DNA from: a virus
Taxonomy: Duplodnaviria; Heunggongvirae; Uroviricota; Caudoviricetes
Virus record (IMG/VR): IMGVR_UViG_2693429668_000006
Reading direction: 5' to 3' (one strand)
DNA: 64,000 nt
The notes under the pieces are model-generated. The model was given only the letters and a program-made list of their open reading frames with translations. It had not been told where the DNA came from and did not search any database. The position numbers were made by a program, and so were the translations under genes. This document shows, piece after piece, positions 3,642 through 49,509 of this stretch. How positions within the stretch are numbered: the stretch's first letter is position 1; each line of letters starts with the position of its first letter.

Positions 3642-3851
3642 ATGACAATCACCGAGTTACGCCGATGCACTGTATAAGTAAACAGTATATTAGGCATAGA
3701 TTCTTATAGGATCAAGAGTAAAAGTAACTCATTTTCAGCAATGATTCCATACATAGTAGGTATGGAATCATTTAGCCGTTGTTTTTTGAATTTTAAGGGA
3801 ACCAAGCGTGAGTTTGGTGGGAACAAAAACGGCTCCTGTGAGCCGTTAAAA

Positions 3852-4097: not shown

Positions 4098-4236
4098 GTT
4101 TACCTCATAATAATTATGTGTTACTTAACCAGAAAATAAATATTACTATAAAAGATAGGTAAGTAAAAACCTATTTAATGTCTGCAATACATCGTAAACT
4201 TGCCTGTTAATCACAACTTAATTTAGTTAATATTTA

Positions 4237-5565: not shown

Positions 5566-5816
5566 GTTGTGCAGATTCGAAGCCTCTTTAAATTTTGCGC
5601 TGAAAATTGTTATTTTACGGTAAGTAACGCTGTTTTCAGCGCATAAATGTCAGTGAATAATTTGATGCTTGCTGTAACGATGGTACGCTACGTAAAATCC
5701 GATATTTATGAGACTGATTGCAGGTAAGGACTTACATAGCGCACAAAAATTGCTGATACCAGATGCAATATATGTTTAATGTCAAATTTTAGATAGGGGC
5801 GTATACGCCCCTGTCA

Positions 5817-6371: not shown

Positions 6372-6490
6372 TAATTTGTCTCCATGTTTAACTGCTGCGA
6401 TCTAATCAGGAACATGAAGGCAGTCTAACGCTGCCTCGGATCAAAGCGATAAAACGATACGTGAATATAACTAAGTGTCAACAAATCAAA

Positions 6491-6515
6491 AAAGGGGCCG
6501 AAGCCCCTTTGAATT
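6491..6515 (-). terminator. rho-independent terminator downstream of tRNA cluster
   Basis: Hairpin GGGGCCGAAGCCCC (6494..6507) followed on minus strand by TTTTTTGATTT. Confidence 0.5.
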
Positions 6516-6584
6516 TTGCGCTGAAAAAAGTGTTGCTAGGATGTTAGCAAGCTATGGTTAAGAACGTCTGCCGTAATTGTCTAT

Positions 6585-6662
6585 CACAGCGTTGAGCGGT
6601 CTGGTTTATGTTAGCGGAGTCTTAATCTGGTTGATTAAAAGGCCAAACCGCTCAACGCTGTG
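6585..6662. repeat. long inverted repeat (16 bp perfect arms, 46 nt loop) flanking tRNA cluster
   Basis: Arms CACAGCGTTGAGCGGT (6585..6600) and ACCGCTCAACGCTGTG (6647..6662). Confidence 0.6.
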
Positions 6663-6664
6663 TC

Positions 6665-6751
6665 TGGCGGAGAGTAATGGAATCGAACCATCATCGTTTG
6701 CACAATGGGACGGTTTTCAAGACCGCTTGAGCACCATGCTCCCTACTCTCC
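6665..6751 (-). tRNA. tRNA-Ser-like (anticodon UGA), type II, 87 nt
   Basis: Acceptor GGAGAGT/ACTCTCC, anticodon loop CTTGAAA, T-loop TTCGATT, 3' GCCA; hand-folded, D-arm not fully resolved. Confidence 0.5.
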
Positions 6752-7045
6752 AATTGTGTTGTGTGCTCCGTTTCGTGGAGCTAACGGCGGGTGATCAGAC
6801 CGCACCAGGTTGGACGTATTTCAGCGTTATGCTGTTGCAAGAGAGCCAAATTGTGATGGCCGGTGCTGATCTCCGGCATTGCCTACGTTAGCGGCCTTCA
6901 GGCAGTTCATCCGCTTGCTTCTACGTCGCACATCAGCCTGTGCATTCACCACAATGTTGAGAACACTGGTTGTCACGCTGCAACGCAACATTATATTCAT
7001 AAATTGGGATATGAACCCGTTACGCCAATGTTCTCAATATTATGT

Positions 7046-7121
7046 TGGTGCCGGTTAACGGACTTGAACCGCTGGCCATTTGCTTACAAAGCGACTGCTC
7101 TACCAACTGAGCTAAACCGGC
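7046..7121 (-). tRNA. tRNA-like, possibly tRNA-Thr (UGU), with imperfect anticodon stem (possible pseudo-tRNA)
   Basis: Good acceptor (GCCGGTT/AACCGGC), D-arm and T-arm, 3' ACCA, but anticodon stem GTCGC/GCAAA pairs at only 3 of 5 positions. Confidence 0.4.
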
Positions 7122-7125
7122 AATT

Positions 7126-7212
7126 TGGTGGGGAGTGATGGAGTCGAACCACCCGAGTCGCAATGACAGTAGATTTACAGTCTACACCGCTACCTCTACG
7201 GACTAACTCCCC
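7126..7212 (-). tRNA. tRNA-Tyr (anticodon GUA), type II, 87 nt
   Basis: Acceptor GGGGAGT/ACTCCCC, anticodon stem-loop GTAGA-CTGTAAA-TCTAC, long variable arm, T-loop TTCGACT, 3' ACCA; differs from host tyrT. Confidence 0.6.
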
Positions 7213-7217
7213 TAAAT

Positions 7218-7292
7218 TGGCGATGGTGGGTGGATTCGAACCACCGATCAGTTGGTTAACAGCCAACTGCTCTACCGCTGAGCTACACCATC
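7218..7292 (-). tRNA. tRNA-Asn (anticodon GUU), 75 nt
   Basis: Canonical cloverleaf: acceptor GATGGTG/CACCATC, D-arm GCTC-AGCGGTA-GAGC, anticodon stem-loop GTTGG-CTGTTAA-CCAAC, T-arm GGTGG-TTCGAAT-CCACC, 3' GCCA; sequence differs from host tRNA-Asn. Confidence 0.75.
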
Positions 7293-7556
7293 AATTCAGC
7301 ACTGCCAGTATTTATTACTCAGCAGTGCCAATCGCGGCGGTGTTAGTTTTTGCCAATAAACGCACCGCTACTTGCACTTTTCGTTAGTGCCAGACGTTTT
7401 CGACTTCGCTCAATAGAAGGCAAAATCTTTAAGTAGATGATGTTTCTGAGGACAGCACCTACTTTGTAATTTACATAATGCGGTGTATGGAATCATTTGT
7501 TGTGAAAACAGGCACCAATGGCAACAGTGGTTAAACCTACACAACAATCCTGTCTT

Positions 7557-7678
7557 CACAACGTTGAGGCCACTACCCCGATTGAATGTTTGCCCAACAT
7601 GTTACATATCAACGTTCGCCAGTATCTCTGTGAATAGAACCTTAGAATTGATAAAAATGTAATGGCCTCAACGTTGTG
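7557..7678. repeat. long inverted repeat (15 bp perfect arms, 92 nt loop) on other side of tRNA cluster
   Basis: Arms CACAACGTTGAGGCC (7557..7571) and GGCCTCAACGTTGTG (7664..7678); arm sequence related to element at 6585..6662. Confidence 0.6.
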
Positions 7679-8081
7679 TGCTGGCTAACCATACCAGCCG
7701 GGCTACGTCGCCGCTTTTTAACCCAGTATAAACGACATAATTGAACAAAATGACGTAACAGGATGGGCGGTCAGTGGCTAAGAATCCGGGAGTGATATGG
7801 AGTTGGAAATATACCGACCGCCCATTCTGTTACTTCATCGGAGAGGGCATGGGTGGTGCCGTATCATGCCCTCTCCTGCGTTCTGCAATCACACTCGCTC
7901 AGTGTGTCCCATTTCGGTAACGAGGCTGGAAACTGACCTCGCTGGTGTTTGGCTTATTAGGCTACTGCCAGATAGACTTCTTCGTTTGCACTTGTATTTA
8001 AGTTCAAACAGTCGCGTCTCAACGAAAACAAAGCCATCTTATACATAAAAGATAAGTAAGTAAATACTTATCGTGATGTTT

Positions 8082-8372
8082 TTATTCGGTTGTGACTTTT
8101 TTGATCATGGCCACTCTACGATCAGGTGTTCTTGTGATGGTTGCAGTGAATCGTTTCGCTTGGATAGTAATGGTTTCGTTCTCCTTAAGTTGCCCGTAGC
8201 GAGTTTCCACCAGGGTGCCAAGACGCCACAGGCAATCATCGATACGTTTATGACTGGCAAATTTAATCAGCAGCAGTTTTACGACTAACTGACCTACGTA
8301 AAAGGCGAATCCGACTCCAGTCGCGATGAAATAGTGTACCAACCACCAGTCCCAAGAAGTTAAATTGCTCAT
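8082..8372 (-). CDS. hypothetical membrane protein
   Basis: ORF track; hydrophobic segment WDWWLVHYFIATGVGFAFYVG; start ATG overlaps stop of upstream small ORF (ATGA). Confidence 0.45.
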   Translation of the reverse strand: MSNLTSWDWWLVHYFIATGVGFAFYVGQLVVKLLLIKFASHKRIDDCLWRLGTLVETRYGQLKENETITIQAKRFTATITRTPDRRVAMIKKVTTE

Positions 8373-8521
8373 TTTCTCACCTTTGTTTCATGAATTACCC
8401 GATACACACGCTTTCCGATGCACAGTGTTTTGGTTTTAAGTTCCTGCTTAATTAAGTCACGACAGATGCCGAAGCCGATAAGGAAACCAGCCATAAAAGC
8501 TAATGAGATGTATGGAATCAT
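8369..8521 (-). CDS. small membrane peptide (50 aa), translationally coupled
   Basis: Hand-translated MIPYISLAFMAGFLIGFGICRDLIKQ...; ATGA overlaps with both neighbours; below ORF-track size cutoff. Confidence 0.35.
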   Translation of the reverse strand: MIPYISLAFMAGFLIGFGICRDLIKQELKTKTLCIGKRVYRVIHETKVRK

Positions 8522-8733
8522 TCTAACGCTCCTGATTCTACTAATTGCTGTAGCAATACTTTCCCTTTATCAGTTAACTGGTAGTTGGCCGAGCACCACG
8601 TTTCAGAAACGTTTGCAACCAACCCTAACCGCTCTAACTTAGCCCGCGTTTTAGGCTTCCAGTACTCAGGGAACTCCGGCCACTTACTGATTTCATGAAG
8701 CGTTTCCTTCTCCCGCTTACTTAATACGATCAT
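8518..8733 (-). CDS. hypothetical small protein (71 aa)
   Basis: ORF track; coupled to neighbouring small ORFs. Confidence 0.4.
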   Translation of the reverse strand: MIVLSKREKETLHEISKWPEFPEYWKPKTRAKLERLGLVANVSETWCSANYQLTDKGKVLLQQLVESGALE

Positions 8734-8896
8734 CCTTAATCTCCTTCACTGTGTGGGTTATTTCTACAATGCGATAAATACGACCGCGTCGTTCTATAAC
8801 ACCGCTTTTAATGTAGTCATTGATGCAACTGGACATCACCACAATACCGATTAAAAAACCAACCGCTAAAAATGCAATCATCCAGCCGAGCATCAT
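8717..8896 (-). CDS. small membrane peptide (59 aa), translationally coupled to ligase gene
   Basis: Hand-translated MMLGWMIAFLAVGFLIGIVVMSSCINDY...; start overlaps ligase stop (ATGA); below ORF-track cutoff. Confidence 0.35.
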   Translation of the reverse strand: MMLGWMIAFLAVGFLIGIVVMSSCINDYIKSGVIERRGRIYRIVEITHTVKEIKDDRIK

Positions 8897-10215
8897 TCTT
8901 TATCTCCGATTCGATCTTCTGTATCGCGTAAGCAACGCGGCCATTTCAGTCGTGGGTGGCGTAAGCTGCCGTCCGGTGTTTTCTCGTGACAATGAACCTC
9001 AACAATACGACCACGGTACTTCTCTTTGTTGTTCCAGATCTCGTCCAGATATTTATGCTTAATGCCGCTCGCACGAACAATCACACCGTTTTCAAGGCGA
9101 ATAACAATTTTTCCAAGCGTGTTGGCAAAACCAGAGTCCGGGTCGCCCGACTCAAAGTCGATAATTTCACCATCTTCTGAATCTTCGTCTTTTAACTTCC
9201 ACCAGCTGCGGGTACGTTTAAACTCGTAAACAGAGTTCGGATCTTTGCCCATCTCCCCTTCTTCGTTATCGTCAAGGCGTTTCATGAAGCGTTCGATGAA
9301 GTCTTCGTGGCTATGGATGATATAGAACGGATGCAGGTGAATGTCTTGTGTGTAGCCTTCACTGCGATCGTTTTTGAACAACGCCACGAGAATAGCCAGG
9401 CGCTCTTTCAGCTTCATACCTGTCTTTGCATACTCTTTGGATTTAGCCTGTGCCCGCCATTCCGGTAGGAAGAAGTCGAAAACATGATAAATAGCGCCAA
9501 TTGCCTGCACGTTCTTTTTGCGCAATGCAGATACGGACTGGTTAAATGAACCGGCTGTTCCTTCACCATCGAAGAAGATGTGTTTGTGGCCTGAAAGTTT
9601 GCCTAATTCGAGCATTGCTGGCTTTAGGTGATCGAGAGACGTGATTGGATTACCAGTACGAGAAAGGAAGTTAACCTCTTCCTCGTCAACAATAACCTCG
9701 CAAATTACTCGCAAACCATCGAGCTTAAGACTGCCAATCATCGGCCATTTTGCTTTAGGGTTTGGCTTGAAGGGGTATTTGTCGCCTTTTTCTTTATACG
9801 GTGACGCCAGCTGCACCTCGAATTTCGGAATGGGATTTTCAAAAACCTTGTTGCATAGGCTAATCCCAACACCCGCTTTCGGGTCTTTTAAGAGGAAACG
9901 ACGGAACACGTCCTGCCCATCGGCGCACATTGACGCCACGATAGACTCAACAGCAGCTATTGCTGCGTTCCCCGTCAGCTCGCGAGAGGCCAGCTTATTC
10001 AGTACATCAATGGCTTTTTCGTCACTTGGGACGGACTCACTAAGCGGCTCTGCCACTTTGTATTTCTTTACCCCAAAACGGATGAAAGGGTTGAGCATCA
10101 ATGAAACCATGCTTTGTTCAAAGTCATCCATGTTGGCCAATGCCTCTTTTTTTGCATTGGTTCCCATAGCTTTCATTTCGTCCAGCTTATGCTTAAGTGC
10201 GATCAACTTTTTCAT
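8893..10215 (-). CDS. ATP-dependent DNA ligase
   Basis: Adenylation motif I KLDG in ...GSLKLDGLRVICE...; 440 aa. Confidence 0.75.
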   Translation of the reverse strand: MKKLIALKHKLDEMKAMGTNAKKEALANMDDFEQSMVSLMLNPFIRFGVKKYKVAEPLSESVPSDEKAIDVLNKLASRELTGNAAIAAVESIVASMCADGQDVFRRFLLKDPKAGVGISLCNKVFENPIPKFEVQLASPYKEKGDKYPFKPNPKAKWPMIGSLKLDGLRVICEVIVDEEEVNFLSRTGNPITSLDHLKPAMLELGKLSGHKHIFFDGEGTAGSFNQSVSALRKKNVQAIGAIYHVFDFFLPEWRAQAKSKEYAKTGMKLKERLAILVALFKNDRSEGYTQDIHLHPFYIIHSHEDFIERFMKRLDDNEEGEMGKDPNSVYEFKRTRSWWKLKDEDSEDGEIIDFESGDPDSGFANTLGKIVIRLENGVIVRASGIKHKYLDEIWNNKEKYRGRIVEVHCHEKTPDGSLRHPRLKWPRCLRDTEDRIGDKE

Positions 10216-10682
10216 TGTTGTTTTGCCTCCATATGTTGATCGATTTGCTCATGTGTTTCTTTTGTTGTTTCTTCAATCAACGCCGCATACACGTCAGTGA
10301 TCGCTGTTTGTGATGTGGCGCTCTTCTTAACCATGCTATTAATCATTACACTGTCACGTTTTCGTTTTATAGTTCTGGCTTGTTTATTCCGTTCTTCAAC
10401 CTCCTTAATGAGTGCGGTCATATCTTCGAAATACAGAGATTCTCCTTTACGAATCTCTTCAACCATCATTTTTAACGCCTTGCATTTGCCTGCTTTAATA
10501 GCGGTTGCGCACGACTGGAAAGACGTTCGAGGAAGACGGTTTTCTTTGAAGGCAAGAATGGTGTGCTGGCAAACGGAGTAGCTGCAATATGCCGACTCAC
10601 CGTTTATCTTTACTTCCTCACAACGAAGTGAATAACCGTTATTTCCTGAAATAGAAGGGACTTTTGACAAATCAGCTTTCAC
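10212..10682 (-). CDS. hypothetical protein, Cys-rich N-terminus
   Basis: ORF track; overlaps ligase start by 4 nt. Confidence 0.4.
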   Translation of the reverse strand: MKADLSKVPSISGNNGYSLRCEEVKINGESAYCSYSVCQHTILAFKENRLPRTSFQSCATAIKAGKCKALKMMVEEIRKGESLYFEDMTALIKEVEERNKQARTIKRKRDSVMINSMVKKSATSQTAITDVYAALIEETTKETHEQIDQHMEAKQQ

Positions 10683-10749
10683 AATTACCGCCAGAAATAA
10701 TCTTGTGCTTACCTATCATTATTTGCGTAAAAAACGACACACAGAGAGC

Positions 10750-11532
10750 TTACCAACTTCCCCAGCTAATCATCTTGCGCTGATCGCTTTCTAAGCGATA
10801 GGGGGCAAGAAGCTCTGTGACATGATTGGTGGCGTATGATTTGGCCTCTTGCTCTATCATCGGTAATTCGTTAGCAATCCTGACCATCTTCCCAGCAAAT
10901 TCCGCCATTACGCCATCACACGCCTTACCCGCATCAACAATGATATGCACAAGATCCAACTGGCTTTTGCACATGTCCCAAAGAGTCGAATATTCGCTCT
11001 CCCTGATTAGGTTTACAGCATCATTAGCCCCTTTATTAATCAAAACCTCCAACAGATTTGTCGGGGTGACGAAATCGGCTTTCAGAGACAATGTTGGTTC
11101 AGCTTTTACCGACAGCAAGTAATCTTCAAAGTTTTGCTTGTCTTCCAGCAAAGCTAAACTACGCATAGCTCGAATTGATTCTCGAATAACGGCTTCAATA
11201 TGTTCGTCACCTGGAGGACAGATAATGGTATCTGTATAGATGACTCTGCCATCAAACCACGCCCCAACCTGCACTTTTAGAGTTCGTAAGTTTTCTTTGC
11301 GTACAAAAACAACTAATGCAGAACGTCGTGCATGTGCAGGTTCGCCCCATACGCACAACTTAACCTTCAGATAAGGTAGCCCCGGTAGAGGGATCTCGAC
11401 CAAACGAGTGGCGATATGATCCATTGCCGTATTGACGGCTTTTTCAATGATGTCTAGCCGATTGCTCTCGCTGATTTCTAAACCAGTTTTATCAATGATG
11501 TTGCAGGCTAATCTCTTAATTTCTTCTTTCAT
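10750..11532 (-). CDS. hypothetical protein
   Basis: ORF track, 260 aa, no recognised motif. Confidence 0.45.
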   Translation of the reverse strand: MKEEIKRLACNIIDKTGLEISESNRLDIIEKAVNTAMDHIATRLVEIPLPGLPYLKVKLCVWGEPAHARRSALVVFVRKENLRTLKVQVGAWFDGRVIYTDTIICPPGDEHIEAVIRESIRAMRSLALLEDKQNFEDYLLSVKAEPTLSLKADFVTPTNLLEVLINKGANDAVNLIRESEYSTLWDMCKSQLDLVHIIVDAGKACDGVMAEFAGKMVRIANELPMIEQEAKSYATNHVTELLAPYRLESDQRKMISWGSW

Positions 11533-11657
11533 ACCAACTCCTAGCTAACGGATGAAAGTATTCTTACAAAAACTTAAGTATGTATCTACTTATCATTTTA
11601 GGTGCAATAGTTCTTTATACTAAGATGCCGGGCATATCCTCAGCCCAGCATTCACCT

Positions 11658-12071
11658 TTAATGAGCTACAGCCTCACTGTTGCACATCTTTCTGTAGACC
11701 TGCTTATAACGCTGTAAATCATGAGGATCATTAGGTGCCAACGACTTCGATAGGATTTTGTATACCACCCCTTTTGAAAACATGCCCTTTGGCTTCATTT
11801 CGAGTTCAACAACATATGAGTGATAGCCCACGTATGCACCAAAGCCATTTTTGGCGTTTAATTCACCACACACAAAGCCTGTCACACTCCCATCATCATG
11901 ATCAGTCCTGACAAACTTATCTTTCCTAAACATCACCGACGTGGGATCTTTCATATCATCCGCAATTGCCTGTTGGCCCAGAGTAATAGCCTTCTCGTCT
12001 GTAGGCTTACACCCAACTAATGCAAACAACGACAATAAAGCACCTGTTAAAATCAACTTCTTTTTGCGCAT
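11658..12071 (-). CDS. lipoprotein
   Basis: N-terminus MRKKKLILTGALLSLFALVGC (lipobox LVGC). Confidence 0.55.
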   Translation of the reverse strand: MRKKKLILTGALLSLFALVGCKPTDEKAITLGQQAIADDMKDPTSVMFRKDKFVRTDHDDGSVTGFVCGELNAKNGFGAYVGYHSYVVELEMKPKGMFSKGVVYKILSKSLAPNDPHDLQRYKQVYRKMCNSEAVAH

Positions 12072-12298
12072 TTTGACTTCCCTTTATTTATATTTATCGT
12101 AGGTATTAGTTAACCAAAACACGAGCCGTGTCACAATAATTCCATAGCTCATTATTTCCATCAGTGATTAATATCACATCAACTTTACAGTTCATAAATT
12201 ATCAAAGCTGACAGATTAACTAAATTTAAGTACCCTTTTCGCACACTTGACGCTTGCCGCGTCTAAACTGTTCATCCTATATCAACAGAACATAAAAT

Positions 12299-13552
12299 AT
12301 GAAACTCATAAAACCTTCATCGTTGCTGGCATTAGCTTTGCTTTTCGGCCCTGGATACGTTAACGCAGATAATAAACAAACGCTGATCGACGCCGCCACC
12401 GCAGGAGATACCACAGCACAAAGTGCGTTAGGGACAAATTATTTGGATGGGGCTAATGGCTTTGATGAGGATTTAGTAGAGGCCAAGAAGTGGATCGATC
12501 TCGCCGCAGAAAAGGGAGATAAAGTAGCATATTATGCGCTTGGGGTTATGTACACAATTGGGAAGGGAGTAGATAAAGATCTAAATAAGGCCGTTGAGTA
12601 CTACAAACTAGCAGGAAATGCTCGCAACGGCAGTGCTTACCATAATCTTGCCGTTATATACGAACGAGGTTGGACTGGAAAGGAGGACCCAGAAGCTGCT
12701 TTAAAATATCACAAACTAGCAGTAGAAGCTGGTGATATACCTTCGCTTGCCTATATGGGATATTTATATCAATACGGTAAGGGAGTTCCGAAAGATTACA
12801 AGAAAGCATTTAAATCTTATAAAAAGGCTGCGGATAGTGGAAATGCCGCAGGAATGTATGGGCTAGGCTCTATGTACGACGATGGTGTTGCTGTTAAGCG
12901 CAACAATAAAGAGGCAATTAAGTGGTACTTGAAAGCAGCTGAATTAGGAAATAATAACGCCATGAGCGCGCTTGGATACAAGTTGATGCATGGAGAAGGT
13001 ATAAAAAAAGACTATTCGAAGGCCAGAAGTCTTTTAGAACAAGCAATCAGCTTAGGAAATGATTATGCCATGAACCACCTTGGTTACATGTATCTTAAGG
13101 GATTGGGCGTCAAACAGGATTATCGGAAAGCATCAGAGCTTTACCAAGCTGCTTGCGATAAAGATGACGAAACGGGCTGCGAAAACGTTGCTGCAATGAA
13201 AGCAAAAGGTACGTTCCGTTCGCCTTCAAAACAGCAAAATGCCAAATCTGACACTCAGCGACTTATTGCTAAATCCATTGATAAAGGCGTTAACGCAACA
13301 TTTACCTGGCAGGGTGATGATGCCGTCTTCACCGCTAATGATGGCAAAGTTGACTGCACCTTCTTGAAGGATTTTTCAGAGAAAGGAGGCAATCTGGCTA
13401 CCTCGTTTGTTTGCACCGATAACGTTCAAATCATCCTGAAGCAATTCAGAGATACCAAGAATGCCTACCTCGCGGTAATGACTGACAACTTCAACACAGA
13501 AGTTAAATCATTTTCGGTCAATGTTTACGTGACTAATACTGGTTCAAACTAA
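12299..13552 (+). CDS. secreted Sel1-repeat (TPR-like) protein
   Basis: Signal peptide MKLIKPSSLLALALLFGPGYVNA; repeated A-x-Y-x-L-G-x-M-Y-x-x-G-x-G-V-x-x-D/K units typical of Sel1 repeats; plus-strand island among minus-strand genes. Confidence 0.6.
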   Translation: MKLIKPSSLLALALLFGPGYVNADNKQTLIDAATAGDTTAQSALGTNYLDGANGFDEDLVEAKKWIDLAAEKGDKVAYYALGVMYTIGKGVDKDLNKAVEYYKLAGNARNGSAYHNLAVIYERGWTGKEDPEAALKYHKLAVEAGDIPSLAYMGYLYQYGKGVPKDYKKAFKSYKKAADSGNAAGMYGLGSMYDDGVAVKRNNKEAIKWYLKAAELGNNNAMSALGYKLMHGEGIKKDYSKARSLLEQAISLGNDYAMNHLGYMYLKGLGVKQDYRKASELYQAACDKDDETGCENVAAMKAKGTFRSPSKQQNAKSDTQRLIAKSIDKGVNATFTWQGDDAVFTANDGKVDCTFLKDFSEKGGNLATSFVCTDNVQIILKQFRDTKNAYLAVMTDNFNTEVKSFSVNVYVTNTGSN

Positions 13553-14797
13553 TGCTGCTATACCTTTTACCTTGCTTAAAAGTTCAAGCTGTCGTGAGTA
13601 AGGTTTTGCGCAATAGTAGGCTTTGATAATCTGCCCCGGTGTCGCATCGCCGGGGTCGAGTCCTTCCTCGCCCAAACACGCAACTTTGACATTAAGACCA
13701 ATACTGGTCAGTCGCCTGGCTGCGGCCATCGTGTTTCGTATAGCTTGCTTTTCACTATCCCACATCATGATCACATTACGTAATCCACGCGCCTTGAGCG
13801 TCAGGAACGCGCCCAACTGATCTTCTGCATCCTGAGTGGTGTTGCCAGATAGATGCATCCCGAACGTTCCTATTGGCTCCACGTAATCACGTAATGTTTC
13901 TTCGTCGAAAATAGCTCGTTTGACCCCCATAACATCGAACGCACCCTCACAGACAACTACAGTCTGTTTGCCGACTGCATTATGGCCGTTGTAGAGAAAT
14001 TTACCTGAAGCTGGAAGCTGCATAGGAAAGAGGTAGCGGCGTTCTGCTGTACCGGTAATGTCTCGTCCCTGAAATGTCTTCATTACCCCATCCAGATCGT
14101 AAACCGGTATCAGTATTCGCATATCGAATATCTGCCCTTTTACCTGATCTGTATACGGATCTACATAAGCGTGCTTGCCTTCGACGCAGTATCGTAGGTC
14201 AAAATACTTTGCCATTTCAGGTGATATGTTTCGTTCAACCAGATAGTCTGGAAGACGGCCATCTATAGGAAGCTCGTAATGACGAGGGAGTGCAACTGGC
14301 CCCTCTAACTCGACTGTGCTTGCAAGCACTAGCTCTTCTTTCTTTGGTGTCCACCCCTGGGAAAGAAGAGCGTTCTGCACATATTCCTCGAACTGTCGTC
14401 GTGATTTACCGCTGTAGTGCTTGAGGAAGACCAGCTTATTGAACTGAATCTCTTCGGGATGATCACCAGCGAAGCATTTGCCGACGCCACTGGTCAGATT
14501 GAAATATACCTTCCAGTTGGAGCTGCCGCATACCGGACACTCTTTGATATTCACTTCACGACCGCGAGCACTCACGCCTCCACGTCGATAAACGATACCT
14601 TCAGTATCCAACCATTGTTCAAAATCTAATTCGGCAATTAGCTCTTTCAGCTCGCTCACGATAATTCCACTTTTAACAGGCAATATTGTGACCAACCTAA
14701 ATGTTGATATAACATAAAGGCTCATGTGTTTTTCTTTTGTGGTTTGGCAAAAGAAAAGTTGTTTCACCAATGAATCAAGCGTGGAGGTGTTCTCCAC
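13544..14797 (-). CDS. DnaG-like DNA primase (zinc ribbon + TOPRIM)
   Basis: CPVCGSS...GKCFAG zinc-binding motif and TOPRIM-like VVVCEGAFDVMG; start position uncertain. Confidence 0.6.
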   Translation of the reverse strand: MENTSTLDSLVKQLFFCQTTKEKHMSLYVISTFRLVTILPVKSGIIVSELKELIAELDFEQWLDTEGIVYRRGGVSARGREVNIKECPVCGSSNWKVYFNLTSGVGKCFAGDHPEEIQFNKLVFLKHYSGKSRRQFEEYVQNALLSQGWTPKKEELVLASTVELEGPVALPRHYELPIDGRLPDYLVERNISPEMAKYFDLRYCVEGKHAYVDPYTDQVKGQIFDMRILIPVYDLDGVMKTFQGRDITGTAERRYLFPMQLPASGKFLYNGHNAVGKQTVVVCEGAFDVMGVKRAIFDEETLRDYVEPIGTFGMHLSGNTTQDAEDQLGAFLTLKARGLRNVIMMWDSEKQAIRNTMAAARRLTSIGLNVKVACLGEEGLDPGDATPGQIIKAYYCAKPYSRQLELLSKVKGIAALV

Positions 14798-14806
14798 GCT
14801 TATTTT

Positions 14807-16147
14807 TTAGGTAACGTCTAAGATTCGCTCAATGAAGCGCATTTGTTCGAGGTTTTGTTTAACGCGAATGCTGATCCCTCCCTGCTGGTTACGTGAACCG
14901 GCAAAGTAGAGACGAGCCTCTCCTTTCGCTTCTTCTTCTTCGGTTTTGTTGATCGTTATTACCAGGTCAGCAATACGTACTTTTTCGATGTTGTCGGCAG
15001 CGTGCATCATTGTGGCAACTTCTGACGCGCCACCTTCACGGTTTGTCTGCGATGCCGTGATCCCAGCAACGTTATGCTTGTCATAAAGAGCACGTAAATC
15101 GGTGTAGATACTACGAATGTTGGCGCGATCATCACGAAGGTCATAACTGGCACGCATCAAATCTGCGTAGTCGACAACAACCATGTCAGGCACCATGCCG
15201 TTGGCTTTCATGCTGTTAAGCATACGGTCCAGATCTGCCGGTGACATACTTCCTGACGGACGCTCAACAACCCACAAACTACCAATCCCCTTAGAGGCTC
15301 CCAACTCTGCCAACTTACGATGAACTTCATCGCGCCGTTCCACCAACTTGGACATTTCCGTCTCCGACAATCTTGCATCAAAACGGTCGGACAAAATGTT
15401 GGTGTGAACCTCCAGCGAGAGATACAGAACATTGTAGCCAGCAAGCGTTGCGTTTATGGAAAACTCGCCCATTGCGGTCGATTTACCGGATTTAGCGAAC
15501 CCCATGAAGAGCACCATTTCGCGCTTTGCCCAGCCTTTTTGGTACAGCAACCTATCGAGAAGAGGGAGTCCAGTTGTAATACTGTTTGGTACATACTCCT
15601 CTGAAGCCTCATATTCACGCGCTTTCAATCGCTCACTTGCGGAGGTGTAGTAGTCATAGATTCCGGTCGCTTCGTTCGATCCAATCTGCTGAACCTTGGC
15701 CATGATTGCCATCGCCCCCTGAAAGTCGCCCTTCTCTTTCAGTTCAGCAGCCTTAATCAGAGCATCATCAAACGCTACGCTTTTTGCGAAGGTTGATACC
15801 TGGTCAACCATGTACGAGGTATCGGACAATTTTTCTGCAAGGATGCGCTTAAACGCAACAACAACATCGGCGAATAGTTCCTCACGGATAGTCTTATCGC
15901 GTTTCGCACGCTTAAGCATATCCAGAATTGCAGATGAAGAGGGCGCGCTCTTGTACATACGGTAATAGCCCGAAACCATATTAACCAATATGGCATTGGC
16001 CGCATTGGCAAATTGGCTAGGCACAACCAGATCTCCCGCACGAGTAAGAAACTCGTGATCACGACAAAAATATGCCGTCAGTCTGTTCTGGAAATCTTCA
16101 TCAAACTCTTCGGACAGCCCGCGTCCTGTATGGCAAAGTTCGGTCAT
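14807..16147 (-). CDS. DnaB-family replicative helicase
   Basis: Walker A GFAKSGKST, Walker B VVVDYADLM, RecA-like C-terminal domain. Confidence 0.7.
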   Translation of the reverse strand: MTELCHTGRGLSEEFDEDFQNRLTAYFCRDHEFLTRAGDLVVPSQFANAANAILVNMVSGYYRMYKSAPSSSAILDMLKRAKRDKTIREELFADVVVAFKRILAEKLSDTSYMVDQVSTFAKSVAFDDALIKAAELKEKGDFQGAMAIMAKVQQIGSNEATGIYDYYTSASERLKAREYEASEEYVPNSITTGLPLLDRLLYQKGWAKREMVLFMGFAKSGKSTAMGEFSINATLAGYNVLYLSLEVHTNILSDRFDARLSETEMSKLVERRDEVHRKLAELGASKGIGSLWVVERPSGSMSPADLDRMLNSMKANGMVPDMVVVDYADLMRASYDLRDDRANIRSIYTDLRALYDKHNVAGITASQTNREGGASEVATMMHAADNIEKVRIADLVITINKTEEEEAKGEARLYFAGSRNQQGGISIRVKQNLEQMRFIERILDVT

Positions 16148-16166
16148 GTGCTTTCCTTTGTTTTTT

Positions 16167-16182
16167 AAACAAATTGTTTTCT
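16167..16182. promoter_or_regulatory. operator-like palindrome AAACAAATTGTTTTCT upstream of helicase gene
   Basis: Member of recurring AACAAnTTGTT motif family. Confidence 0.4.
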
Positions 16183-16190
16183 AGTATTAG

Positions 16191-16940
16191 TTAATTAGAT
16201 AGGGGATCAATAAACCGCCGTGCTTCTTCCAGTTCTTCTGGAAAGTGGGCGGAAATAAGGCGCTCTGGAACGATTTCCATTAGCCAGATAGCGGAGAAAA
16301 TTGCGCGTATGCGCTTACTGCGAGGGATGGTGCGCAAACGCTCCAGAATCCACTCAAAATAGCTTTCCTGAATCGGGTTGAACTGCATGTCTCCCATATG
16401 CTTAAAGCTAACCAGAGAGTCATCCAGACGGGTTGTTGCGCGTCTGGCTAATTTCTCTTCAAATATCTCAATCAGTTCTGGCTGCCACAAATGCTGTGGG
16501 CGAGGCAGCTTGTCCCACAGACGTCGTGCAGCTGCGGAAAGAACAGTGGAGATAAAGTAGTCGTATGAGCAGCAATAGCGATCCGCAAACTGGCGTGCTT
16601 TCCATAGCGACGTTTTATTAGCAGTCGACAACTCCTGATAAGGCAAGCGTTTTAACCCGGTGGTGAACGGAGCTGTTTCAAAGTGTTCACGACCGTGCGT
16701 CAGCATGATATTTGAGTACTGACGTTTGTATGCCTCCGTAAACAGACAGGTGGCCATGAGAGGATGCATATCGCGGTAATCAAACCACTTCGTCTCAAAC
16801 AGTTCAGCCTCGTCTTTGCAGCGCGACAAACCAATGTTTTCAGCAACCCACTTGTCCATAACAGCGGTATTCCACTCTGTCATGAAGTCGTACTGGTCGT
16901 TGTCGATGGTATCGAAAAAGATTTGGCTCATGTGGCTCAC
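16191..16940 (-). CDS. hypothetical protein (replication region)
   Basis: ORF track, 249 aa. Confidence 0.45.
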   Translation of the reverse strand: MSHMSQIFFDTIDNDQYDFMTEWNTAVMDKWVAENIGLSRCKDEAELFETKWFDYRDMHPLMATCLFTEAYKRQYSNIMLTHGREHFETAPFTTGLKRLPYQELSTANKTSLWKARQFADRYCCSYDYFISTVLSAAARRLWDKLPRPQHLWQPELIEIFEEKLARRATTRLDDSLVSFKHMGDMQFNPIQESYFEWILERLRTIPRSKRIRAIFSAIWLMEIVPERLISAHFPEELEEARRFIDPLSN

Positions 16941-17045
16941 CTGGTAGGTAGTTACTTACTTATCACAATGAGCGGATGATAGCGACTGGTGGCAGTTTTT
17001 GGAAGTGGAAACGGAAGGGACTTGTTCTGGTGGGTGTCTTTAAAA

Positions 17046-17104
17046 GACCTGCTTCTGTATATACAAATAATAAGTAACTTATTAAATACATACGGAAGCA
17101 GGTC
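17046..17104. repeat. 59 bp imperfect palindrome with AT-rich core TAATAAGTAACTTATTA
   Basis: Arms GACCTGCTTCTGTAT / ATACGGAAGCAGGTC; related copy at 49164..49218. Confidence 0.55.
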
Positions 17105-17112
17105 ATAATCTA

Positions 17113-18819
17113 TTAATGATTGAGTATTTTATTAACACGCAGCTTATTAAGTGTTGATTTTGAAGCAACTTCCTCCAAAGCTTCTATTGCTTTATCAGTG
17201 ATGCTCTTCTGTTCGTCTGTCGGGTGTTGCATACCCTTGAACTTGAGCATAGTCTCTTCTACTAAATTCAAAGCATCCTGATCACAGGATAATATCCAGT
17301 TTACGTAATCATCTTTAGAAAAACTGTTAAGAATATTCACATCACTATGGTTAAATCTTCCACCAGCTATTTTTTTTATAATTTTATCTAAGTTATAGTC
17401 ATCTGGATTTCTATCTTTCAATTTTTTTTCAATTCTGAAACCTAATTCTTCATTTCCGAAGATCTCTACTCGCAAAGAATTAAATGTAGCATACGCATTG
17501 TCTTTATTAACAAAAGCATCTGCATATGCCTCTATAATATTATTACAATCTCTATCCAATTTGATTAGGACATTTATTAAACCTACGAACTGTCCAATTG
17601 GTATACGCAACAGACTATCGTTAATTACGCGCTCAATTTGAAAAATAAACTCTGATTCATTATCTTTAAAAGAGTTTCTAAAAACATCCCAAATTTTATA
17701 AACCTCACATAAAACCCTATTATCTCTATATTGTTCATTTTTTTCTTTTATTATATTTAGAATATTGCTTTCAGAAGACACATAACCGTTCTTAAGGTAA
17801 AAATCTATATCATCATCGAAAGCACTTTCTGCTCGTTCATAAATAATATCAAGGCTATTAACAAATGAATATACAGAGTTAACTTCTTCCTTTTCATCTT
17901 TATCATCTAACATATAGTCGAATGCATGTATATTTTTGATTGACTCCTTAAATGAAGCATAATCAACGCTAGGAACACCAAAATAGTAAACCACTGAAAA
18001 TAAGACCAATCTATTAATAAAACTTTCTCTAACCTTATCCTCTGCTAACTTTAGCACATCTCTAAATATAACTAGAGATGATTTTATTTTATTTAATATT
18101 CTAATGTTTTTGATGTTTAAATCATTTGCTAGGTTTTTTAACAAAAGAAAATCAGGGTCAGTCTCATAAAAAACTTTTCTTAAGTTTTTCTCAGGCGTGG
18201 GATCGTATTTTATTTCCACATCAATTATTTTTTCTCTATACTCTAAAAACTGTTGTTGTGCAGTTTCTTCATGTAAGTTATCTTCATTTAATATTAGAAC
18301 AACCTTGCAATTTTTTCTTCTTGCCAACTCATCAATTACCCCCATAATCTCTTTAATTTCTAGCGCACTACCTTTTCGTTCAATATCATCAATGCAAACC
18401 AAATAATTATTAACAAATTTATACTCAAGAGATGACAGCAGATTATCAGTTTTGAACCCAAAAAAATCGTTCTTTCCAAAATGTATTAAAAATTTTGACA
18501 AGGAGTTGTATTTCAACCATCCCCAAAACCCATTTCTATAACGAATCATAGTTCGATCCGTTTCAGATAAAATCAGTTCTTTATATTTCTTTTCATTAAT
18601 TGGTGTGGCACAATGATAAAGAGCTTTTTTAATGTCTCCAATAGAATTTATTCCAAACAAAGAAACATATGAATATGCATTAAAATCTAATTTTTTAGAA
18701 TGTTTAGTATAAAAGCTATTCCAATAATGCGTTTTACCTACTCCCCAATTTCCTTTTATGACAGCAACCCGATGATCTGAGTCCAAAAAATTTTTTAAAA
18801 ATACTTCTATCGATTCCAT
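17113..18819 (-). CDS. KAP-family P-loop NTPase (candidate defence or abortive-infection protein)
   Basis: N-terminal Walker A KGNWGVGKTHYW matches KAP signature GxWGxGK[ST]; 568 aa; strongly AT-rich relative to neighbours. Confidence 0.55.
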   Translation of the reverse strand: MESIEVFLKNFLDSDHRVAVIKGNWGVGKTHYWNSFYTKHSKKLDFNAYSYVSLFGINSIGDIKKALYHCATPINEKKYKELILSETDRTMIRYRNGFWGWLKYNSLSKFLIHFGKNDFFGFKTDNLLSSLEYKFVNNYLVCIDDIERKGSALEIKEIMGVIDELARRKNCKVVLILNEDNLHEETAQQQFLEYREKIIDVEIKYDPTPEKNLRKVFYETDPDFLLLKNLANDLNIKNIRILNKIKSSLVIFRDVLKLAEDKVRESFINRLVLFSVVYYFGVPSVDYASFKESIKNIHAFDYMLDDKDEKEEVNSVYSFVNSLDIIYERAESAFDDDIDFYLKNGYVSSESNILNIIKEKNEQYRDNRVLCEVYKIWDVFRNSFKDNESEFIFQIERVINDSLLRIPIGQFVGLINVLIKLDRDCNNIIEAYADAFVNKDNAYATFNSLRVEIFGNEELGFRIEKKLKDRNPDDYNLDKIIKKIAGGRFNHSDVNILNSFSKDDYVNWILSCDQDALNLVEETMLKFKGMQHPTDEQKSITDKAIEALEEVASKSTLNKLRVNKILNH

Positions 18820-18870
18820 TGGTGTCTATCCTTCAACTCATATATTGGGCGTAACAAACGCCCAATATAA

Positions 18871-19230
18871 TCACCCTTTCTTCATCAACTCGCGTTTAAT
18901 TTCATCGGTACGCATCGTGACATCGGCAGCTGTGATCGCCTCGTTAAGTTTCACGATGTCCTCGATTTCCTGCGGTGTCTTCTCCGCAAGATGGAAAATA
19001 GCAGCACGAATCACGTCAGAACGAGTGAACTTCTCGAAGCGAGGGATGAACTTCATCATCTCCAGCAGTTCGAAGTATTCGTCCTCCAGTGACATTGTGC
19101 GGCTTTTAATTTTCTCTTTGCCACGAGTCGGGCGTCCCTGTGGTCTGACTGGTTGGCGCAAAGGAGTTGTGTTCTTAGCCGGTGCATCAGGCTCTTTGCG
19201 CTTTGCTAGGTCACCCATTTTCATGGACAT
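18871..19230 (-). CDS. small partition protein (ParG-like ribbon-helix-helix centromere-binding protein)
   Basis: 119 aa, immediately downstream of ParA with overlapping start/stop; RHH-like C-terminal segment. Confidence 0.45.
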   Translation of the reverse strand: MSMKMGDLAKRKEPDAPAKNTTPLRQPVRPQGRPTRGKEKIKSRTMSLEDEYFELLEMMKFIPRFEKFTRSDVIRAAIFHLAEKTPQEIEDIVKLNEAITAADVTMRTDEIKRELMKKG

Positions 19231-22466: not shown

Positions 22467-22669
22467 GTTTTCCTCCGTGAAAAGTCAAATCGGGATGGCG
22501 GATTTATATCACACTTCTCCTTTTAATTGTAGGTATATACTTACCTACCTATACATATACCGTTTAACGGTTGTTCATATTCGCATCTAGTAACTCACTA
22601 ATATATCCCTATGATTGCGGCTGTGAAATCGCATTTTTAAACCACACAGCCATATAAATAATGTCTAAA

Positions 22670-33603: not shown

Positions 33604-33685
33604 TGTTTCATCCTTGAAATAAGTAGGCGCTAACATCCTGTCAGCGCCACAATGATAGTAAATTAGTACTTACTTATCCAGATAC

Positions 33686-47158: not shown

Positions 47159-48415
47159 CTATCGAGAACCACCAAGAATAACACGGTTTTTGACTGGATA
47201 CCTACGATGTACTGGATAGCCCAATGCGTCTGCACTATGCTCAATGCCACCTGTCTTATCCATATCTCGTGTTCCAGGCTTGTAGATGACTTTTTCCAGT
47301 GAATCAATCAAATGCTTGCACTTCGGATCGATATACAGCCGGATATCTCCAGATGCGGTCATCAGCATTCGGTTAACAGCATTAACACGATCCGCAATTG
47401 GCGGGTGCTTTTTCGAATAATCGACACGTAAGAATCCCTTCTCTTTGAATATGTCGACGTCAGACTCCCCGCGAGCATGTTGGCGATAAGCACCTGCCGG
47501 ATCTGGAAATACCGTTATCTGTGATTTCCAGCGCCAGAAGCGTCTCTCAAGCTCATCACAAACCTCTGCCGTGTTAGAGGAAAAGAGCACCAATTCATCA
47601 ATTGCCCATAGCTCACCATTTGGCTGAGGTTGCAAAATTACTGAAGACATCGGGTCAATGTTGAAGTCCTGCCCTACCCATATAGGCAACCGAGGGTTGA
47701 ACTGAAGCGGTTTTACATGCACGTTACGATCGAACGGGTAGTAAACGCGCCCGGACATGTTCTCAAAGCTCGCCAGGTACTCCTGAGCGAACGATTTCGG
47801 GTCCATATCGTTCTTAGCAGCTTCAATTTCCGCCGTAGGTACAAACGGAGAATCGGCAGTTACAAACTGCCAGCTCTTCCACTGTCCCTTTCTTTGCAGC
47901 TCTACGTTCTGGCCTATAGTCCACAGTTTGTGAAATTCCGAGAAGCCTTTTGGCGTACCAATGATCAGTGCACCGCCGCGTGTCGATGAAAGAGTAGGTC
48001 GTAACACCTTGTACCAGGTGTCAGCCTTCATATCCTGAAATTCATCAAGCACTACAAAATGCAACGCTACGCCGCGCAGAGTGTCAGGCTTATCAGCACC
48101 TTTGAGGGCGATCTCCGAACCGTTCTTCAACACGATTGTCATCGTGGTGTCGTTCTTTTTCCTAACCCACTTACGAGGCAGAACTTCCTGTAGATCGTCC
48201 CACAAAATCTGGCGAGCCATCTGGTAAGTAGGAGCGACATACCAGACTCTTTGCTTTTTTTCCTTTGCCGCCGCACGAATAATAGTGGAGATCGACAACC
48301 GGGATTTTCCCCAGCGTCGACCAGCACAAACAACTTTAAATCGATGCGGAGACTGGAAGACTTTCATCTGTCCAGAATGCAGTTGCACAAGACTGAGCGA
48401 GGACGGGATTGCCAT
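47159..48415 (-). CDS. terminase large subunit
   Basis: Walker A VVCAGRRWGKS, Walker B-like HFVVLDEF, C-terminal nuclease-like region. Confidence 0.75.
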   Translation of the reverse strand: MAIPSSLSLVQLHSGQMKVFQSPHRFKVVCAGRRWGKSRLSISTIIRAAAKEKKQRVWYVAPTYQMARQILWDDLQEVLPRKWVRKKNDTTMTIVLKNGSEIALKGADKPDTLRGVALHFVVLDEFQDMKADTWYKVLRPTLSSTRGGALIIGTPKGFSEFHKLWTIGQNVELQRKGQWKSWQFVTADSPFVPTAEIEAAKNDMDPKSFAQEYLASFENMSGRVYYPFDRNVHVKPLQFNPRLPIWVGQDFNIDPMSSVILQPQPNGELWAIDELVLFSSNTAEVCDELERRFWRWKSQITVFPDPAGAYRQHARGESDVDIFKEKGFLRVDYSKKHPPIADRVNAVNRMLMTASGDIRLYIDPKCKHLIDSLEKVIYKPGTRDMDKTGGIEHSADALGYPVHRRYPVKNRVILGGSR

Positions 48416-49047
48416 TATTCGTCCTCCCCTTCACTTCCATCATCTGTCGCATCAAATTCGCTTAGAGCTTCTTCTTCCAACGTCTCAAGCAATTCGTCAT
48501 CGATGATTTCAGGCTCGTCGTCTTCCTGACGTAATTTCGCCACCTGGGAAGGCGTAAGCTCACCAAATACCAGGTTCGGAATTTCTTCCTCGTCATTTTC
48601 CGCATGATCCATGCCCAATGCTTTGGACGAAACTTCAAAGCATTTTGCAAGGGTATTACTGGCTCTCTGTAAGCTCTTGAGAGAATCCTCAATCGCCCCT
48701 AAAGGCTTACCCTCACGTTTGGCCGTAGTGACTTCGACCATCACCATCTGCCCCAACGCATACGCCCAGCCGTCATAACGTGTACGACGTTCTTCTATCT
48801 TTTCCGCACGGGCTTTAGCGCGAAGCTCTGCGTCAGATTTAAGAGACTCACGAACCATCTTCCCAACAGAGTCCGCGCCTTTCTCTAATCCTCGCTTTTT
48901 GAAATGTCTGGAGAGTGTTTCACGACGAATGCCGTACTCTTCCTCCAGCTTTGAGAGTGTATATTCGCCTGACGTCCATTTGGCTTCAGCTTCGGCCCAC
49001 TCCGCTGGTGTCAGGCGAGTTTTTACCTCGTCTTTTTCGACCGTCAT
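48415..49047 (-). CDS. terminase small subunit (putative)
   Basis: 210 aa, N-terminal HTH-like region, acidic C-terminus; start/stop overlap with large terminase. Confidence 0.5.
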   Translation of the reverse strand: MTVEKDEVKTRLTPAEWAEAEAKWTSGEYTLSKLEEEYGIRRETLSRHFKKRGLEKGADSVGKMVRESLKSDAELRAKARAEKIEERRTRYDGWAYALGQMVMVEVTTAKREGKPLGAIEDSLKSLQRASNTLAKCFEVSSKALGMDHAENDEEEIPNLVFGELTPSQVAKLRQEDDEPEIIDDELLETLEEEALSEFDATDDGSEGEDE

Positions 49048-49086
49048 AGATCCCTCTAAAACACACAGAGCGCGTCCATGCGCTCT

Positions 49087-49127
49087 AAAACAACTTGTTT
49101 ACTGCATCTGCTAACCAACTTGTTTTC
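49087..49127. promoter_or_regulatory. two operator-like palindromes (AAAACAACTTGTTT and AACCAACTTGTTTT) upstream of terminase genes
   Basis: Recurring AACAAnTTGTT motif. Confidence 0.4.
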
Positions 49128-49163
49128 TGGGGTGTTTAATTAGGTCTGGCATGTCTTACGAAG

Positions 49164-49218
49164 CCTGCTTCCGTATATATTTAATAAGTTACTTATTATT
49201 TATATATACAGATGCAGG
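49164..49218. repeat. 55 bp imperfect palindrome, related to 17046..17104 element
   Basis: Arms CCTGCTTCCGTATATAT / ATATATACAGATGCAGG around core TAATAAGTTACTTATTA. Confidence 0.5.
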
Positions 49219-49242
49219 TCTTTAAATAAGCTCCCAGACCGA

Positions 49243-49509
49243 TTACATCACCAGTAACTTCGCTTTGGCTCGACCTAAAGTGGTTAACCCAAGAGTCCGG
49301 CGGTGATAGCGATTGTCACTGCGTTGGCGCGTATGCCCTTTCTCCACCAGCCCCTTTTTTATCAGAGCGCGAATTGAGAACTGGATACTTTGCTTGGTTG
49401 TCTTGTACGGCAAAACTTCAAGCAATTCGTCCAGGTCAAGTAGATGACCTCGCTCATAACCGAGATTGAGCGTTTTGATGATGTCCTTTTGTTTGTCGGT
49501 TAACGTCAT
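49243..49509 (-). CDS. small winged-helix-like DNA-binding protein (putative)
   Basis: 88 aa, basic; tentative. Confidence 0.35.
   Translation of the reverse strand: MTLTDKQKDIIKTLNLGYERGHLLDLDELLEVLPYKTTKQSIQFSIRALIKKGLVEKGHTRQRSDNRYHRRTLGLTTLGRAKAKLLVM

Follow-up and report, generated by a model that had tools for sequence, protein, structure and literature searches.

A palindromic element held in three copies at operon boundaries of SSU5-type phage-plasmids, and its possible action as an RNA hairpin terminator or insulator

Phage-plasmids of the SSU5 type carry, at three operon boundaries, a large palindromic element that may act in RNA as a hairpin terminator or insulator. We describe this element from a stretch of 64,000 nucleotides of the Caudoviricetes record IMGVR_UViG_2693429668_000006, referred to here as the window. 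A previous sequence-only reading of the window had pointed to palindromes at 17046..17104 and 49164..49218, and both were found at these coordinates as near-perfect palindromes, here called S1 and S2. To this we add that S1 and S2 are inverted relative to each other, that a third copy (S3) lies elsewhere on the plasmid, that outer boxes frame the element, and that it is conserved across the family. Comparison of gene-anchored relatives indicates that it is a feature of SSU5-type elements and not an oddity of this window. The interpretation we favour is that S1, S2 and S3 are RNA hairpin terminators or insulators placed between operons, in the manner of the PeSL cassettes of T4-type phages, and from the sequence evidence we put its probability at about 40%.

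S1 consists of the arms CCTGCTTCTGTATATA (17048-17063) and TACATACGGAAGCAGG (17087-17102) around an AT-rich core centred on TAATAAGTAACTTATTA (17068-17084), and S2 of the arms CCTGCTTCCGTATATA (49164-49179) and TATATACAGATGCAGG (49203-49218) around a central TAATAAGTTACTTATTA (49182-49198), neither palindrome being assigned to a strand. Each of the four arm matches has at most one mismatch. The core motif occurs three times in the window against 0.19 expected, a count that none of 100 shuffles reached. The two palindromes had been proposed to be related, and alignment bears this out in an unexpected orientation, in that reverse-complemented S1 is identical to S2 at 55 of 59 positions and the match runs on into the flank GGTCTTT(T)AAA, whereas direct alignment requires gaps. 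On either strand, the RNA folds of S1 and S2 have energies between -25 and -31 kcal/mol (z-scores -4.8 to -6.6). The extent of 55-60 bp originally given holds for the palindromes, but the whole element is larger. By sequence and flank comparison, S2 spans about 98 bp (49143-49240), with the outer box GGTCTGG on the terS side (49143..49149, plus strand) and its inverted partner CCCAGACC (49233..49240, plus strand) between the palindrome and the stop codon of the adjoining 88-amino-acid gene, each some 15 nt from the arms. Across the family these outer boxes read (G)GTCTGGG and CCCAGAC(C), again inverted and about 15 nt beyond each arm, and the linkers between box and arm are non-complementary; TCTGG stands 14-16 nt before the palindrome in 22 of 25 unique S2 flanks. 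At S1 the conserved 3' flank on the transcribed minus strand (17025..17045) holds a run of T residues, UCUUUUAAAG, and then an outer box, CCACCAGAA, while the box on the opposite, cargo side is missing and homology to other plasmids stops at the palindrome edge. The interior of S1 in the window is inverted relative to most S1 copies with its flanks unchanged, and S2 flanks of different lineages (for example Salmonella-type versus Klebsiella-type), read by eye without formal alignment, suggest that whole elements have flipped as well.

Further copies had been anticipated, and although the window holds none, the rest of plasmid pTIC (MF554642.1) contains S3 at 14812-14866, between a DNA methylase gene and a 76-amino-acid gene, with the same arms around a different AT-rich centre. 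In IMG/VR, scanning by pattern yielded about 95 full elements, which fall into three classes by their flanks. This set had been selected by the motif itself, and we therefore re-sampled loci by their flanking genes, taking the 249-amino-acid gene for S1, terS for S2 and the 76-amino-acid gene downstream of S3. The palindrome was present in all 78 S1 loci, all 74 S2 loci and all 71 S3 loci so anchored. Among 5,426 complete E. coli genomes the element was found in 260 (about 5%); plasmids account for 848 of its places and chromosomes for 2, and the median is three per genome. Apparent extra copies in plasmids listed with four or five places are not real in the case read fully, that of ET300, in which five places resolve to exactly three elements, the surplus being palindromes counted twice. 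The three copies are roughly evenly spaced round the plasmid, at about 50, 32 and 31 kb. In a scan of 596 Gb of genome contigs the short pattern used gave mostly chance matches, and among the matches listed a Kluyvera sichuanensis locus has both arms. The element is unannotated and undescribed in the searchable literature: RefSeq has no annotation beneath its matches in the complete E. coli genomes, Rfam returned no family at gathering score and only generic microRNA hairpin models at 22 bits against a gathering score of 84, and text searches of the literature for the element sequences gave nothing relevant.

Conservation is unevenly distributed within the element. Mean pairwise identity is 0.90-0.98 in the 14-nt arms, 0.56-0.87 in the AT-rich centre and 0.39-0.61 in the flanking linkers. 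Among 68 unique variants, arm positions 1-3, 7, 10 and 11 are invariant and positions 4 and 12-14 each differ in one to four variants. Position 9 (C/T) varies independently in the two arms, the observed combinations (T.G 32, C-G 20, T-A 10, C.A 6) being those given by multiplying the marginal frequencies. Total palindrome length ranges from 51 to 57 bp through indels of TA repeats. The conserved parts are the distal arms, 23-29 bp apart; the central ATAAGT-N-ACTTAT of S1 and S2 is absent from S3 of the E. coli plasmids, whose centre is non-palindromic. Lineage-specific variants of the centre are common to the copies of one genome, and in some genomes S1 and S2 are the same.

The proposal that the palindromes sit at module boundaries is borne out at both sites of the window, where the minus strand carries nearly every surrounding gene. 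S1 divides parA, a 119-amino-acid gene and variable cargo from the 249-amino-acid gene, a DnaB-like helicase and a primase, that is, the partition and defence-cargo region from the replication operon. S2 divides two ParB_N genes, ABC-type ATPases and an 88-amino-acid gene from terS, terL, portal and onward, that is, the ParB-like/ABC-ATPase operon from the terminase and morphogenesis genes. All three elements lie between co-directional genes, beginning 8-30 nt past the upstream stop codon (8 nt at S1, 24 nt at S2 and 23 nt at S3) and ending 94-122 nt before the next start codon.

On the reading as terminator or insulator, the cassette would form the end of the upstream operon's transcript, where it would fold into a hairpin of 25-27 bp, GC-rich at its base (CCUGCUUCYG / CRGAAGCAGG) and AU-rich at its top. 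Sense-strand folds have this GC-rich base and reach -28.3 kcal/mol at S1 (z -6.6), -30.7 at S2 and -33.3 at S3, with z-scores from -6.1 to -6.6. At S1 and S3 the hairpin would be followed directly by UCUUUU or CUGUUUU and would act as an intrinsic terminator or insulator. Requiring at least five T within the 8 nt 3' of the hairpin, and counting unique flank variants, we found such a T-run on the transcribed strand at 26 of 30 S1 and 11 of 14 S3 variants, compared with 7 of 30 and 0 of 14 on the opposite strand. The sense RNA also has the greater stability of the two strands in 24 of 29 unique S1 variants. The bidirectional terminator that the sequence-only reading had considered is therefore not supported: at S1 the evidence favours termination in one direction only, and at S2 the T-run is found in 0 of 21 variants on the transcribed strand and 1 of 21 on the opposite strand, the window having CUUCGUAA at that place. 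At S1, an insulator would keep the par operon and defence cargo, taken to be expressed in lysogeny, from reading into the lytic replication operon, which begins about 110 nt past S1, presumably from its own promoter. At S2, the hairpin lacking a U-run might do no more than pause the polymerase or stabilise the 3' end of the transcript, with termination backed by a canonical GC-rich hairpin and T-run, GAGCGCATGGACGCGCTC UGUGUGUUUUAG (49066..49087, minus strand), which lies 77 nt 3' of S2 directly before the terS start and is conserved in every locus anchored on terS. That a terminator-like structure stands at the start of the 32-kb late operon suggests control of late transcription by antitermination. 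Gene conversion could keep the three copies alike, and the cassettes could serve as short islands of identity and junctions for modular exchange, most clearly at S1 beside the defence-gene slot. The best-supported mechanism, though at somewhat less than even odds, is a true intrinsic terminator at S1, and at S3, and at S2 a hairpin that has no U-run but is supported by a second terminator. The variable length of the centre (51-57 bp) would be easily tolerated by a hairpin, and not by a rigid protein dimer on B-form DNA; the flip of the S1 interior without change of its flanks, the persistence of structure but not of sequence in relatives, and the junction of S1 with variable cargo were likewise counted in favour of this interpretation.

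Several observations weigh against this interpretation, beginning with the missing T-run at S2 already described. S2 shows no strand asymmetry in stability, and at S3 it is the antisense hairpin that folds more stably. A stem of 25 bp or more is far above that of ordinary intrinsic terminators, and short GC terminators occur elsewhere on the same plasmid. The arms are conserved in sequence over three paralogous sites, far more so than the linkers (0.90-0.98 versus 0.4-0.6), and their lone freely variable position shows no covariation between the two arms. The symmetric outer boxes, separated from the arms by non-complementary linkers, resemble protein boxes more than an extended stem. In each divergent lineage S1 and S2 have a common motif at the junction of stem and AT-rich centre (TTCCGTAT, TTCGAATA or TCCCATW). 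A scan for the sigma-70 consensus over 16700-17400 and 48800-49500 found no sigma-70-like promoter in the leaders, which do carry conserved blocks and family-specific motifs; the leader between S1 and the 249-amino-acid gene (16933..17024, minus strand), defined from an alignment of 26 unique S1 loci and a motif census, contains the block CCCTTCCGTTTCCACTTCCAAAA and an GATAAGTAAGTAACTACCTA motif at about 16944-16966.

More distant plasmids, sampled at 26-65% TerS identity, indicate that structure and position are conserved while sequence turns over. The S2 of the Klebsiella oxytoca/michiganensis group retains the left arm (GCCTGATTCTGTATG), the base stem and a long T-run, while the S1 palindrome of K. 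oxytoca has decayed and no longer folds, with a canonical terminator right beside it. In Xenorhabdus and Moellerella the corresponding positions are occupied by AT-rich hairpins of about 90-130 nt that are closed by GC clamps of other sequence; that of Moellerella S1 measures 130 nt and leads into TTTTTCTTT. Acinetobacter likewise retains GC-clamped, AT-rich hairpins of different sequence at these positions. One Acinetobacter relative carries a long AT-rich palindrome ahead of the packaging module, another ahead of the helicase operon, and a degenerate third, with arms TTCGAATAAT/ATTATTCGGAA and outer boxes TTTGGG/CCCAAA; all of its copies lack a T-run, a further point against termination. No obvious counterpart was seen in an Aeromonas relative.

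Arm conservation, outer boxes, the absence of a T-run from S2 and the shared lineage motifs would suit a protein-recognised site about as well as a hairpin. S1-S3 could accordingly be double-stranded DNA sites for a phage-plasmid protein, foremost the two conserved ParB-family proteins, and serve as a centromere or silencer like the KorB operators or the N15 centromeres; we regard this as doubtful, yet as the main alternative, and hold the same of the view that such sites keep the plasmid in partition complexes, silence adjacent lytic operons in lysogeny, or both. It would account for arms that are near-invariant at three paralogous sites while core and linkers drift, for a variable arm position that behaves independently in each half-site, and for symmetric boxes held at a roughly fixed distance across linkers that cannot pair. 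The presence of exactly three copies per plasmid, with a similar layout in Acinetobacter, and the fact that S2 closes the very operon that encodes the two ParB_N proteins point the same way. The ParB-like proteins are candidate binders at most, however, and the spacing of the arms changes by 6 bp inside the family and by tens of bp among the relatives. No contiguous parS-like palindrome of 13-16 bp is present in all three copies, and the K. oxytoca group has let its S1 arms decay yet retains the genes for TerS and the ParB-like proteins. The promoter region of type Ib parA, moreover, has another repeated motif, AAACAA-N-TTGTTT, and S1 is therefore unlikely to be the centromere of the type Ib system. 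In a broader form, which we consider unlikely though still appreciable, the three elements would be cis sites for a conserved phage-plasmid DNA-binding protein (of the ParB family, or the small terminase), perhaps read as extruded cruciforms, in a three-point system that couples partition or lytic silencing with a packaging switch; such a system would be ancient, extending from Enterobacteriaceae to Acinetobacter, with site and reader co-evolving. If the elements are indeed recognised by protein, they would expose the cis-control logic of the family.

Three other functions appear considerably less probable. That S2 stands some 115 nt upstream of terS in each of the 74 anchored loci would fit a cos or pac site recognised or cleaved by the adjacent terminase, with S1 and S3 as secondary or pseudo-sites, as would the hairpins of Moellerella, Xenorhabdus and Acinetobacter that precede the packaging module and change in sequence along with TerS. 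The linear GenBank records of virion-derived SSU5, and of Cyrano (NC_018843.1 and OV696614.1, respectively), also open and close inside S2, at ...ACTTATTA|AATATATACGG. The Cyrano paper, however, is a re-annotation from the plasmid with comparison to SSU5, without end mapping, and the start of that record was probably merely aligned to SSU5; a draft-genome contig (locus L225, position 1) begins inside S1 at the equivalent arm/core junction, which indicates that assemblies break at these inverted repeats, and breakage of this kind likely explains all three record ends. TerL belongs to Terminase_6N, its nearest characterised relatives being those of T5-like and Jersey-like phages at about 25% identity. 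T5-like and Jersey-like phages package by long terminal repeats or by the headful mechanism, and neither group is known to use cohesive ends. Three near-identical copies per genome would yield sub-genomic cuts, only S2 adjoins terS, and symmetric cleavage around the centre would produce overhangs complementary to themselves. Literature searches for SSU5 or Cyrano termini or cos sites found no report, the SSU5 genome announcement being outside the literature covered. Given the absence of a termini report, the assembly breakage and the kinship of TerL, the cos interpretation carries low weight, and a packaging function for S2 is improbable. Somewhat more improbable is another role in RNA, either as RNase III processing or 3'-end stabilising sites like the R sites of T7, or as nut/put-like antitermination elements. 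A stem of at least 22 bp with few mismatches, a conserved stem sequence and intercistronic positions would be in keeping with this, and the succession at S2 of a U-less hairpin and a canonical terminator before the 32-kb late operon resembles lambda nutR-tR1, but the T-runs of S1 and S3 are typical of terminators, the strand asymmetry of pairing is inconsistent among sites, no Rfam family matches, and relatives swap the sequence entirely. Least probable of the three is that S1-S3 are lytic replication origins, in which an AT-rich unwinding centre is clamped by inverted sites for an initiator or helicase loader as in herpesvirus oriS/oriL, one of them beside the helicase-primase operon. An AT-rich centre between GC-rich conserved inverted arms would favour melting or cruciform extrusion, and S1 is directly upstream of the 249-amino-acid, DnaB-like and primase genes in plasmids of E. 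coli, K. oxytoca, Moellerella and Acinetobacter. Against this, GC skew has no inflection at S1 or S2 (weak evidence, as skew here tracks transcription), the 249-amino-acid protein has no recognisable domain and no initiator was pinpointed, and both the T-run pattern and the placement just after stop codons would be left unexplained.

The sequence-only reading had also raised the possibility of recombination sites delimiting exchangeable modules, and one part of it stands, namely that S1 is exactly at the edge of a variable slot. Similarity between plasmids ends at the cargo-side edge of the S1 palindrome or just past the outer box, and at least 10 cargo sequences unrelated to one another meet it there; S2 and S3 are flanked by conserved genes left and right, and S1 alone adjoins a variable slot, on one side. 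There is, however, no recombinase and no second site bracketing the cargo, and the crossover point of one mosaic plasmid maps 35-60 nt downstream of S1, outside the palindrome, which can therefore travel with the cargo; a specifically recombinational function thus has little support. In the window the slot, between the par operon and S1, holds a variable cargo gene for a KAP-family P-loop NTPase (17113..18819, minus strand), whose stop codon is 8 nt 5' of S1 and which matches the candidate defence system PDC-S49 of PADLOC. In Cyrano, SSU5 and ET300 unrelated genes fill the slot, with DUF2971 genes matching PDC-S31 in Cyrano and SSU5 and a gene matching PD-T4-3 in ET300. Outside the window, the candidate defence genes of the slot lie at 4126-4929 (locus L002), 4130-4888 (L003) and 33040-33807 (L482). 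By these matches the slot is a hotspot for candidate defence genes. We note that a further hairpin, ATATTGGGCG-TTTGTTA-CGCCCAATAT (18842-18868, minus strand), lies after the 119-amino-acid ParG-like gene and before the KAP gene, at the other edge of the slot.

The element shares features with several known systems without coinciding with any. Like Rho-independent terminators, it has a hairpin with a GC-rich base a few nt past the stop codon and, at S1 and S3, a U-run; unlike them, it has a stem of 25-27 bp with a long AU-rich upper part, no U-run at S2, arms conserved in sequence over three paralogues and several genera, and symmetric outer boxes. T4-type phages have PeSL cassettes, which are composite terminator/promoter stem-loops that mediate modular shuffling (PMC2839356, PMC4122927). 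S1-S3 are similar in being repeated, sequence-conserved intergenic stem-loops at operon junctions and, in the case of S1, at the edge of a variable region, that offer short homology for exchange, but differ in having three copies only, a slot bordered on one side, no promoter recognised by the consensus scan, and a mapped crossover beside the palindrome. The comparison with KorB operators of RK2 and the dispersed centromeres of N15, which are short contiguous palindromes of 13-16 bp, extends to a few palindromes scattered in intergenic regions upstream of operons on an element with ParB-family genes; in S1-S3, by contrast, AT-rich DNA that varies from 23 to 29 bp in length stands between the 16-nt arms. 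Proximity to terS and coincidence with the SSU5 record ends recall cos/pac sites such as lambda cos, from which the element differs in its three copies per genome, its full symmetry and a TerL unlike cos-type terminases, the record ends being explicable by assembly breakage. As an imperfect intergenic palindrome of about 100 bp with terminal inverted boxes, it is also like REP/BIME, ERIC and Correia-like repeats. A host-wide miniature inverted-repeat transposable element or REP is ruled out by the location of 848 of 850 copies on plasmids, the median of three per genome and their syntenic positions. An integron attC-like or other site-specific cassette site was rejected in view of multi-gene cargo without internal copies and with no adjacent integrase. 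A Chi-like nature of the outer boxes was discounted, since TCTGGTGG near S1 agrees with Chi in 7 of 8 positions but the S2 and S3 boxes in only 5 of 8, and the core has no match to the integration host factor consensus WATCAA-N4-TTR.

Phage-plasmids of the SSU5/pHCM2/pMT1 type are common in clinical Enterobacteriaceae and carry resistance and defence genes. A landmark in three copies that partitions their genome into morphogenesis, replication and accessory blocks, and marks one edge of the defence slot at S1, helps in annotation and in delimiting the cargo hotspot, and accounts for assembly breaks at these positions. It also provides an entry point to how lytic operons may be insulated from genes expressed in lysogeny.

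The assignment of the window to this group follows from its similarity to known members. Positions 16000-19000 match plasmid pTIC at 100% identity, E. coli plasmid pGMI17-003_2 at 99.8% and parts of phages Cyrano and SSU5 at 82-98%, and on this sequence identity the window is an SSU5/pHCM2-type phage-plasmid. The first gene 3' of S1 is the conserved 249-amino-acid gene (16191..16940, minus strand; phrog_2500, function unknown), which begins the DnaB-like helicase/primase operon. The 88-amino-acid gene 5' of S2 (49243..49509, minus strand; phrog_900) closes the ParB-like/ABC-ATPase operon with its stop codon 24 nt from the palindrome, and the two ParB_N proteins, assigned by domain match, are encoded in this operon 2-3 kb upstream of S2 (51068-52434). 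On the 3' side, the first gene is that of the small terminase or 'DNA-binding protein' (terS, 48415..49047, minus strand; phrog_867), followed by terL (47159-48415; Terminase_6N). Pfam, PHROG and PDB gave no informative match for the proteins adjoining S1 and S2, and PDB sequence searches with the 249-amino-acid protein, the 88-amino-acid protein and TerS gave nothing significant. Over window positions 1-16000 the coordinate offset to MF554642.1 shifts by 1,324 bp between about 1,400 and 16,000, and there is therefore an insertion or deletion there in either the window or pTIC. Three inverted-repeat pairs at 6585-6662, 6947-7047 and 7557-7678 have a common arm motif, CACA(A/G)CGTTGAG, and spacers of 38-82 nt, inside a low-GC stretch (GC 0.34 at 4-6 kb).

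Two dispersed motifs were also observed. One is partly palindromic and about 24 bp long, GATA(A/G)GTAAGTA-N2-3-TAC(C/T)TA(T/C)C, and is found in the window at 16944-16966, 47140-47165, 52436-52460, 33660-33690 and 22530-22560 and at more than 15 other places on the plasmid. It is intergenic, usually 10-45 nt upstream of a ribosome-binding site or beside GC hairpins, and ATAAGTAA occurs 19 times against 5.5 expected. The central ATAAGT-N-ACTTAT of S1 and S2 resembles a compressed form of it, and Acinetobacter relatives have an analogous motif, TATTAGTAAG-NN-CTTACTAATA. This motif is probably a family-specific promoter or operator. In the Acinetobacter relative NZ_CP061522.1 (locus L485), a sigma-70 family sigma factor is encoded beside a MoxR ATPase at 82337-83002; should the SSU5 group encode a comparable factor, its promoters could be the dispersed motifs. 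The other motif, (T)AAACAA-N-TTGTTTTCT(T), has about 18 good copies, one of them upstream of parA and two between S2 and terS, where motif reading places them at 49088..49125 on the minus strand; it likely represents an operator or promoter element for a regulator encoded by the element. Its places in the window include 19934, 49088, 49113, 16167, 62714, 62765, 58229, 58714, 60367 and 60851, among others.

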